A stretch of 221 nucleotides of DNA, taken from the sequence record M10495.1; one strand, written 5' to 3'. The DNA comes from a phage. Under the pieces are notes generated by a model, which saw only the letters and a list, made by a program, of their open reading frames with translations, was not told the origin of the DNA and made no database searches. Shown piece after piece: positions 1 through 221 of the stretch (positions within the stretch are counted from its first letter, which is position 1; each line of letters starts with the position of its first letter). Made by a program: the position numbers and the translations under genes.

Positions 1-5
1 GGGGA

Positions 6-21
6 CCCCCCGGAAGGGGGG
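6..21 (+). other. 5'-terminal stem-loop; the 5' GGGGA (1-5) is left unpaired
   Basis: CCCCCC (6-11) is the exact reverse complement of GGGGGG (16-21): 6 bp stem, GGAA loop (12-15, GNRA-type). Checked by hand. Confidence 0.7.
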
Positions 22-41
22 ACGAGGTGCGGGCACCTCGT
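22..41 (+). other. Perfect 8-bp hairpin
   Basis: ACGAGGTG (22-29) pairs with CACCTCGT (34-41); loop CGGG (30-33). Checked by hand. Confidence 0.7.
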
Positions 42-171: not shown

Positions 172-173
172 CC

Positions 174-197
174 CTTCGCGCAGCCCGCTGCGCGAGG
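174..197 (+). other. 7-10 bp hairpin near the 3' end
   Basis: Core CGCGCAG (177-183) pairs with CTGCGCG (188-194); loop CCCG (184-187). Extendable by T176-A195, T175-G196 (G-U wobble in RNA) and C174-G197. Confidence 0.65.
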
Positions 198-200
198 TGA

Positions 201-214
201 CCCCCGAAGGGGGG
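201..214 (+). other. 3'-proximal stem-loop, mirror of the 5' hairpin
   Basis: CCCCC (201-205) pairs with GGGGG (210-214); loop GAAG (206-209). Confidence 0.65.
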
Positions 215-221
215 TTCCCCA
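215..221 (+). promoter_or_regulatory. Single-stranded 3' tail TTCCCCA: C-cluster initiation site for the replicase plus a terminal A
   Basis: Seen: bases 215-221 lie outside every local hairpin and end in CCCCA. Established knowledge: Qbeta replicase starts synthesis opposite a 3' C-cluster and adds a non-templated A. The tail could instead pair with 1-5 in a terminal panhandle (see findings). Confidence 0.6.

Follow-up and report, generated by a model that had tools for sequence, protein, structure and literature searches.

The 3′ end of an MDV-1-type RNA is a probable initiation module homologous to the 3′ end of the Qβ minus strand, with Qβ RNA as its most likely origin

Small RNAs that are copied by the replicase of phage Qβ raise the old question of where replicase parasites come from. 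The DNA analysed here, a stretch of 221 nt from a phage sequence record (M10495.1; positions 1-221, hereafter the window), poses this question in a concrete form. A preliminary description, made from the letters alone, had noted that the reverse complement of its 3′ end resembles the 5′ end of the Qβ genome, and had proposed that the RNA either arose from, or converged on, the phage RNA ends which the replicase recognises. We asked what kind of molecule the window represents, how far the likeness to Qβ extends, and whether it is better explained by descent or by one of several rival explanations. The homologies described below bear on the origin of such parasites.

Judged from its sequence, the window represents, over its full length, the plus strand of an MDV-1-type (midivariant) RNA; such RNAs are small, non-coding templates and parasites of Qβ replicase. 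This assignment follows from the mapping of published primers, the features of the two ends, the predicted structure and the absence of coding capacity. Five primers published for the MDV-1 plasmid pUC-MDV-LR (PMC4652763) match the window exactly, at positions 44-61, 47-61, 62-77, 62-81 and 66-81; they span positions 44-81, and the identification rests on them together with the length and the end features. The length is 221 nt, compared to 222 nt for the MDV-1 of PMC4652763, and the primers meet at 61/62 in the window, whereas the insertion site is numbered 63/64 in that publication. From the displaced junction it follows that the window is a length variant with 2 nt fewer upstream of the site. 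The shortfall presumably reflects runs of C6 and G6 in place of C7 and G7.

The termini of the window are GGGG at the 5′ end and CCCCA at the 3′ end, that is, the 5′ cluster of G and the 3′ cluster of C followed by A that are a trait of small Qβ replicase RNAs, and its G+C content is 71%. Both strands fold into chains of stable hairpins. The minimum free energy of the plus strand is -143.5 kcal/mol (z = -8.1) and that of the minus strand -138.9 kcal/mol (z = -7.1), and for either strand none of 200 dinucleotide shuffles was as stable. The window contains no open reading frame longer than 29 amino acids and no tRNA-like gene. A search of Rfam 15 at permissive thresholds assigned it to no family and returned only sub-threshold matches to generic hairpins, the best of which was a partial match of 18 bits to the generic CCCC-UUCG-GGGG hairpin of PhotoRC-I, a family with a gathering score of 45. 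Two restriction sites were also seen, a PpuMI site at positions 2-8 and an XhoI site (CTCGAG) at 101-106; A105, within the latter, is one of the seven positions at which the central segment described below differs from Qβ. The features of the window are collected in Table 1.

Table 1. Positions of the structural and Qβ-related features in the 221-nt window
Feature	Positions	Strand	Description	Basis
Plus-strand 5′ hairpin	1-22	+	GGGG-A-CCCCCC-GGAA-GGGGGG, of the Qβ 5′ type	Fold
Second Qβ-like segment	79-126	-	Complement matches Qβ(+) 4090-4137, 41/48 identical (85%)	
3′ module common to MNV	173-220	+	MNV nt 38-86; 42 of 49 columns identical, 6 mismatches, 1 gap	
Penultimate hairpin	174-197	+	Stem 174-183 with 188-197, loop 184-187	Fold
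Qβ-terminus homologue	187-220	-	Complement forms nt 1-34 of the minus strand and is homologous to Qβ(+) nt 1-33/34	Alignments, blastn, statistics
3′-terminal hairpin	199-216	+	G199-U216, A200-U215, C201-205 with G210-214, loop GAAG at 206-209	Local fold
CCCC-A tail, single-stranded	217-221	+	Unpaired; putative site of de novo initiation according to the Qβ literature (PMC4200798)	Local fold

Read on the plus strand, the last part of the window and the 3′ end of the Qβ minus strand are homologous. The complementary sequence quoted in the preliminary description, GGGGAACCCCCCUUCGGGGGUCACCUCGCGCAGC, is the exact reverse complement of positions 187-220, and the Qβ 5′ end that had been given there is exactly the start of the genome of Qβ Anc(P1) (AB971354), GGGGACCCCCTTTAGGGGGTCACCTCACACAGC. 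The two resemble each other as had been proposed, and the alignment runs end to end with nt 1-33 of AB971354, 28 of 33 positions being identical without gaps; when the alignment is anchored at the ends, it comprises 29 identical positions, 4 mismatches and 1 gap. In the Qβ strains TW18, BR12 and HL4-9, which share the C6 run of the window, identity reaches 30 of 34 positions. Only the extent had to be amended: the likeness had been placed at 183-220, and the homology holds from position 187 onwards but not for 183-186, which represent the end of the next stem and three loop bases. Folds and alignment also confirm the common G/C hairpin and the identical UCACCUC that follows it, and the purine/CAGC stretch which comes next reads GCGCAGC in the window and ACACAGC in Qβ. 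On the strand given in the record, the 3′ end of the window can be read functionally as a mimic of the Qβ minus-strand 3′ end, the end on which plus-strand synthesis is templated, and the Qβ-5′-like sequence on the complement as the product of copying that end.

The choice of the reference genome proved critical. We rejected NC_001890.1 (1-4215) as a Qβ reference; although its RefSeq title is 'Enterobacteria phage Qbeta, complete genome', it carries MX1p locus tags and is an MX1-type genome. Its 5′ end is of the M11/MX1 type (GGGTTCCCCCCGTAGGGGGGTAC) and matches neither the true Qβ isolates nor the window, so that its use as a reference would falsely refute the terminal homology.

Against the genuine Qβ 5′ end, the local alignment of the reverse complement is significant. 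Its Smith-Waterman score is 41, compared to 22.2 +/- 2.1 (maximum 30) under a null model of 300 dinucleotide shuffles searched on both strands against the whole Qβ genome. When phage records totalling 2.3 Gb were searched with the whole window by blastn, nt 1-34 of Qβ, on the minus strand, accounted for matches 1-4 (E = 0.02). Since the two arms of a hairpin are not independent and inflate the naive identity, we also considered only the bases outside the hairpin, of which 12 of 14 are identical in fixed register (P ~1e-5 to 8e-5, corrected for two ends and two strands). The proposal that the 3′ end arose from, or converged on, the phage ends recognised by the replicase is thus supported, the resemblance being terminal-to-terminal, statistically solid and located at the end where de novo synthesis starts.

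A scan of IMG/VR with a Qβ-type motif (GGGGGTCACCTCNCNCAGC) returned one real Qβ contig and three chance matches. The environmental 2.9-kb contig IMGVR_UViG_3300019216_000421 carries, at the contig end, a genuine 5′ fragment of Qβ, from which only the first few bases are missing (CCCTTAGGGGGTCACCTCACACAGCAGTATTTCAC...) and which has a loop of the TW18 type. Conversely, the 19-nt exact minus-strand match at 5171-5189 of IMGVR_UViG_3300028809_000119 (GGGGGTCACCTCGCGCAGC) lies inside an unrelated G+C-rich viral contig. Exact matches of 19 nt thus occur by chance in very large collections, and the meaning of the Qβ match derives from its end-to-end register and from the identity of the partner.

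The 3′-terminal hairpin and its counterpart in the Qβ minus strand, ACCCCC-UAAA-GGGGGU, are isostructural, as judged from folds of positions 183-221 of the plus strand and of the complement of Qβ nt 1-37. Both ends share the same secondary structure, namely a G/C-rich stem of six pairs, a four-base loop and an adjoining terminal G/C run. In the penultimate hairpin, the 3′ arm lies in the Qβ-like stretch and the 5′ arm is an inverted copy of the 3′ arm, the inverted repeat as a whole (I2) pairing 169-184 with 187-202. By analogy with the Qβ literature, A221 would be a non-templated 3′ adenosine (PMC4200798). In the equilibrium fold of either strand, the termini are paired as a panhandle which competes with the terminal hairpins, and a free tail is to be expected under a model of local, kinetic folding. 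The panhandle may relate to the 'functional circularity' of legitimate templates, an expression from the title of a 2008 paper by Ugarov and Chetverin.

The opposite end of the plus strand is built in a similar way. Its hairpin is of the Qβ 5′ type, the first bases of the window (GGGGACCCCC) being identical to Qβ nt 1-10, and the minus strand therefore also possesses a 3′ end of the Qβ minus-strand type. Positions 1-11 and 209-219 form a terminal inverted repeat (I3) with 91% complementarity. Beyond the hairpin, the similarity of the plus-strand 5′ end to Qβ is marginal (p ~0.02) and suggestive only. The heptamer CACCUCG is present near both 5′ ends, at 34-40 of the plus strand and at 22-28 of the minus strand. 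Furthermore, inverted copies adjoin the Qβ-like stretches in two places (169-184/187-202 and 22-30/33-41) and make additional hairpins that Qβ lacks, a pattern which suggests snap-back duplication.

The likeness to Qβ is not confined to the termini. The second homologous segment, in the centre of the window, gives a stronger signal than the terminal one, with a Smith-Waterman score of 61 against a null maximum of 30; by a conservative count, 30 of 36 independent positions are identical, and the probability multiplied by the number of placements is 3e-7 to 4.5e-5. In AB971354, the matching region runs from the final codons of the replicase gene across the stop codon into the beginning of the 3′ UTR and includes a stem-loop of 12 pairs (Qβ nt 4096-4124), whose counterpart in the window has its arms at 92-103 and 109-120 of the plus strand. 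The stem covaries across the Qβ strains and M11: 95% of the cells are paired, compared to no more than 43% when the partners are slid, four pairs show double changes, and none of 500 shuffles reached the observed score. The flanks of the stem-loop, GCACGAAGG and CCUGGGAG, are invariant in the Qβ strains, M11 and the window. The element occupies nt 81-128 from the 5′ end of the Qβ minus strand and 79-126 from that of the window plus strand. The agreement in this position and at the 3′ end makes the window plus strand, in these two regions, the analogue of the Qβ minus strand. We infer that 79-126, the homologue of this conserved stem-loop close to the Qβ minus-strand 5′ end, serves as an internal replicase-binding element. 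The minus-strand complement of the Qβ 4090-4137 element reportedly corresponds to the central replicase-binding region of MDV-1, as described by Nishihara et al. in 1983. A direct repeat (83-101 and 186-204, 74% over 19 nt) is centred on AGGTGAC, a heptamer that both Qβ-like modules therefore contain, possibly as a recognition motif but perhaps only by coincidence.

Attempts to extend the homology further gave weaker signals. An extension through the Qβ 3′ tail (4138-4217) reached p ~0.04 and was not accepted. A candidate third collinear piece, of the same strand sense as the terminal and central segments, in which positions 39-84 of the minus strand (138-183 of the plus strand) are aligned with Qβ(+) 562-605, scored 26, compared to a null of 20.5 +/- 2.4 with a maximum of 28. 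This similarity was not accepted either, because both partners are hairpins, the symmetry of which inflates the score, and the null is too lenient. The similarity to Qβ is thus not collinear over the whole molecule, only the segments of 34 and 48 nt being significant. About 40% of the molecule is demonstrably related to Qβ; the other ~60% has no significant similarity to it, which counts against an origin wholly from Qβ.

Both matches are confined to Qβ sensu stricto. M11 and MX1, which belong to the same species, give background scores of 10-23, as does FI. We further compared the window with other small RNAs, using the sequences of MNV, RQT157 and RQ11+12 in Table 1 of PMC5986701. The 3′ module of the window and that of MNV match each other more closely than either matches Qβ, and the pair 181/190 shows a compensatory change between window and MNV, from C-G to U-A. 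The 86-nt MNV is, we assume, MNV-11 of Biebricher and Luce. All three RNAs are presumably templates of Qβ replicase from the Biebricher and Chetverin lineages, a point on which the source of the sequences is silent. The RQ135-type RNA showed no similarity to the window or to the Qβ termini beyond the terminal G/C runs. If, as we believe, RQ135-type RNA is an efficient template of Qβ replicase, its lack of the module indicates that a Qβ-like module is not obligatory for every good template.

The searches of host, plasmid and environmental sequences yielded no further relatives. A blastn search against 5,426 Escherichia coli genomes (E up to 1) gave no match, and one against plasmids gave just two matches at chance level; these searches thus provide no evidence for a host or vector origin of the window. 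RQ135 and RQ120 reportedly consist of fragments of E. coli RNA, plasmids or phage lambda. When IMG/VR, JGI metagenomes and GTDB genomes were scanned with an internal 18-mer, 187 loci were returned, none of which extended beyond 21-28 nt, and we therefore consider them chance matches in G+C-rich DNA.

How the 3′ module might work can be outlined from the literature on Qβ. Both strands of Qβ RNA end with CCA-3′ and begin with GG. Initiation by the replicase is de novo, GTP being placed opposite the penultimate C; no template specifies the 3′ A, whose addition is best on templates that begin with GG (PMC4200798). By the same route, Qβ replicase would thread the unpaired CCCC-A of the window into its template channel, initiate de novo with GTP opposite the penultimate C, copy the RNA and append an untemplated A to the product. 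The stable hairpin 199-216 would probably keep the tail accessible and refold behind the enzyme, whereupon template and product would separate as single strands. Such refolding fits the finding that strong intramolecular structure limits the formation of double strands, and hence of dead-end duplexes (PMC4652763). In the product, the 3′ module would become a 5′ GGGG-hairpin, and because the plus-strand 5′ end also is a hairpin of the Qβ 5′ type, both strands would offer the replicase a 3′ end of the minus-strand type. We also infer a role for GAGGUGA (193-199). In general, small variants drop genes and retain the sequence recognised by the replicase (PMC5041002).

The requirement for the S1 protein has been debated in this context. 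According to a 1972 claim of Weissmann, as reported in PMC5762825, S1 is needed only to start the copying of the Qβ plus strand and not for that of the minus strand or of small RQ RNAs. PMC5762825 disputes this for exponential replication, in which, with replicase in excess, S1 strongly stimulates the replication of both Qβ RNA and RQ RNAs, and finds that S1 acts as a termination factor. At most, the literature on S1 supports the notion that initiation on ends of the minus-strand type is independent of S1. Templates of this type are not known to need a host factor.

We consider it very probable that positions 187-221 of this MDV-1-type plus strand constitute a 3′ initiation module with a homologue at the 3′ end of the Qβ minus strand, and that Qβ RNA was its source. 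The principal rival explanation is convergence, in which selection by the replicase would have produced a Qβ-minus-like 3′ end independently, without any descent from Qβ, because the enzyme initiates best on such ends. A 5′ GGG, a 3′ CCC-A and strong local hairpins are indeed general requirements (PMC4200798, PMC4652763), the other end of the window carries a similar G/C hairpin without convincing similarity downstream, and the changes relative to Qβ all raise the G+C content or the stability of a stem, which shows strong selection in this region. However, general requirements of this kind do not readily account for 12 of 14 identical bases outside the hairpin in fixed register, for a match to Qβ proper rather than to its relatives M11 and MX1, or for a separate internal segment of 48 nt which is 85% identical to Qβ and would be hard to reach by convergence. 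Moreover, the RQ135-type sequence, that of a presumably efficient template, lacks the module. For these reasons, descent from Qβ RNA appears better supported on the sequence evidence, the Qβ-like module seems to behave as an inherited cassette, and we regard convergence as unlikely. Inheritance need not be complete: given an identity of 85-88% and the generic need of the enzyme for G/C hairpins and GGG/CCC, part of the module could be the result of selection.

Two other explanations deserve even less credence. In a laboratory chimera, a Qβ-like end would have been grafted by cloning onto a small RNA; constructs that combine the Qβ minus-strand end with MDV do exist (Mills 1988, described in PMC10013734), and the window has an XhoI site at 101-106 and a PpuMI site at 2. 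A graft, however, would equal Qβ, whereas the module is only 85-88% identical to it, contains an additional base and differs in the loop. The molecule is also as long as natural MDV-1, and the same diverged module is found in MNV, all of which makes a chimera very improbable. Chance likeness of two G/C-rich terminal hairpins seems to us the least credible of all. It is true that 19-nt exact matches arise by chance in large databases and that hairpin arms inflate naive counts, but the shuffle and binomial tests refute this explanation: the scores of 41 and 61 compare to a null maximum of 30, and even when the dependent arms are left out, the conservative binomial probabilities stay below 1e-4. 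Moreover, the match runs end to end with the very phage whose replicase copies such RNAs.

If the module descends from Qβ RNA, the window could have originated from pieces of Qβ RNA that were joined by template switching or recombination. Stems would then have been lengthened by snap-back copying, followed by G+C enrichment under selection for fast replication; the inverted copy of 187-202 at 169-184 is as expected under snap-back copying. A more far-reaching version of this route, which we put forward tentatively and think less likely than not, holds that MDV-1 is a copy-back mosaic built entirely of Qβ RNA. Both termini would come from the Qβ 5′ end, the centre from 4090-4137 and further stems from snap-back duplication (169-184 from 187-202), with 562-605 as a possible third piece and heavy enrichment in G+C. 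If this were true, the midivariant would be a diverged defective-interfering RNA of Qβ, neither made de novo nor derived from the host.

Nishihara, Mills and Kramer (1983, J Biochem 93:669; cited in PMC10013734) are said to have described a near-identity of MDV-1 (+) to Qβ (-) in two places, the 3′ terminus being matched by that of Qβ (-) and the central binding region by an internal stretch. On this account, both homologies were already known, and their confirmation is a sanity check rather than a discovery. The literature that we searched contained neither the full MDV-1 sequence in print nor any restatement of the Qβ homology. What the present analysis adds is the specificity of the matches to Qβ proper, the covarying and conserved central stem-loop in the Qβ group, and the comparison with MNV and RQ135-type RNAs. 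MDV-1 is a classic model of Darwinian evolution in vitro and a standard scaffold for replicable recombinant RNAs. The parts inherited from Qβ, namely the 3′ initiation module and the central stem-loop with its invariant flanks, tell designers of such RNAs which bases to spare.

Among known systems, the closest is MDV-1 itself (Mills, Kramer and Spiegelman 1973; cloned in pUC-MDV-LR and related plasmids), which shares with the window a length of ~221-222 nt, GGGG and CCCC-A ends and, in the exact matches of the five primers, the surroundings of the 63/64 insertion site; both strands of the window are likewise chains of hairpins. The 222-nt version differs in being 2 nt longer in its 5′ part. 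The 3′ end of the Qβ minus strand has the same succession of elements, a terminal CCCC(A), a hairpin of one A-U and five C-G pairs, a four-base loop, and then GAGGUGA and GCUG-N-G-N-G. Unlike Qβ, the window has one extra base between the hairpin and the C run, and its loop is GAAG, compared to UAAA in the Qβ minus strand. In addition, two U-to-C changes on the plus strand of the window permit pairing with the upstream inverted copy, and the resulting hairpin is absent from Qβ. The central segment has the same stem-loop geometry as Qβ 4090-4137 and lies at nearly the same distance from the 5′ end of the corresponding strand. It differs by seven substitutions, through which one U-G pair has become C-G, another pair has become a C/C mismatch and two of the five loop bases have changed; moreover, the element is non-coding in the window, whereas in Qβ it overlaps the C-terminus of the replicase.

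Of the other small RNAs, MNV resembles the window in its two 3′ hairpins and CCCC end, whereas its remaining part, including the 5′ end, is unrelated to both the window and Qβ. The RQ135-type RNAs (RQT157 and RQ11+12) are, like the window, small and structured, with 5′ GGGG and 3′ CCC. A broader parallel is offered by defective interfering RNAs of the copy-back and internal-deletion types. Although the window is related to its presumed parent over only ~40% of its length, at 85-88% identity and with exact junctions not preserved, it resembles these RNAs in being a small parasite of the replicase that combines terminal and internal cis-elements of the parent with complementary termini.
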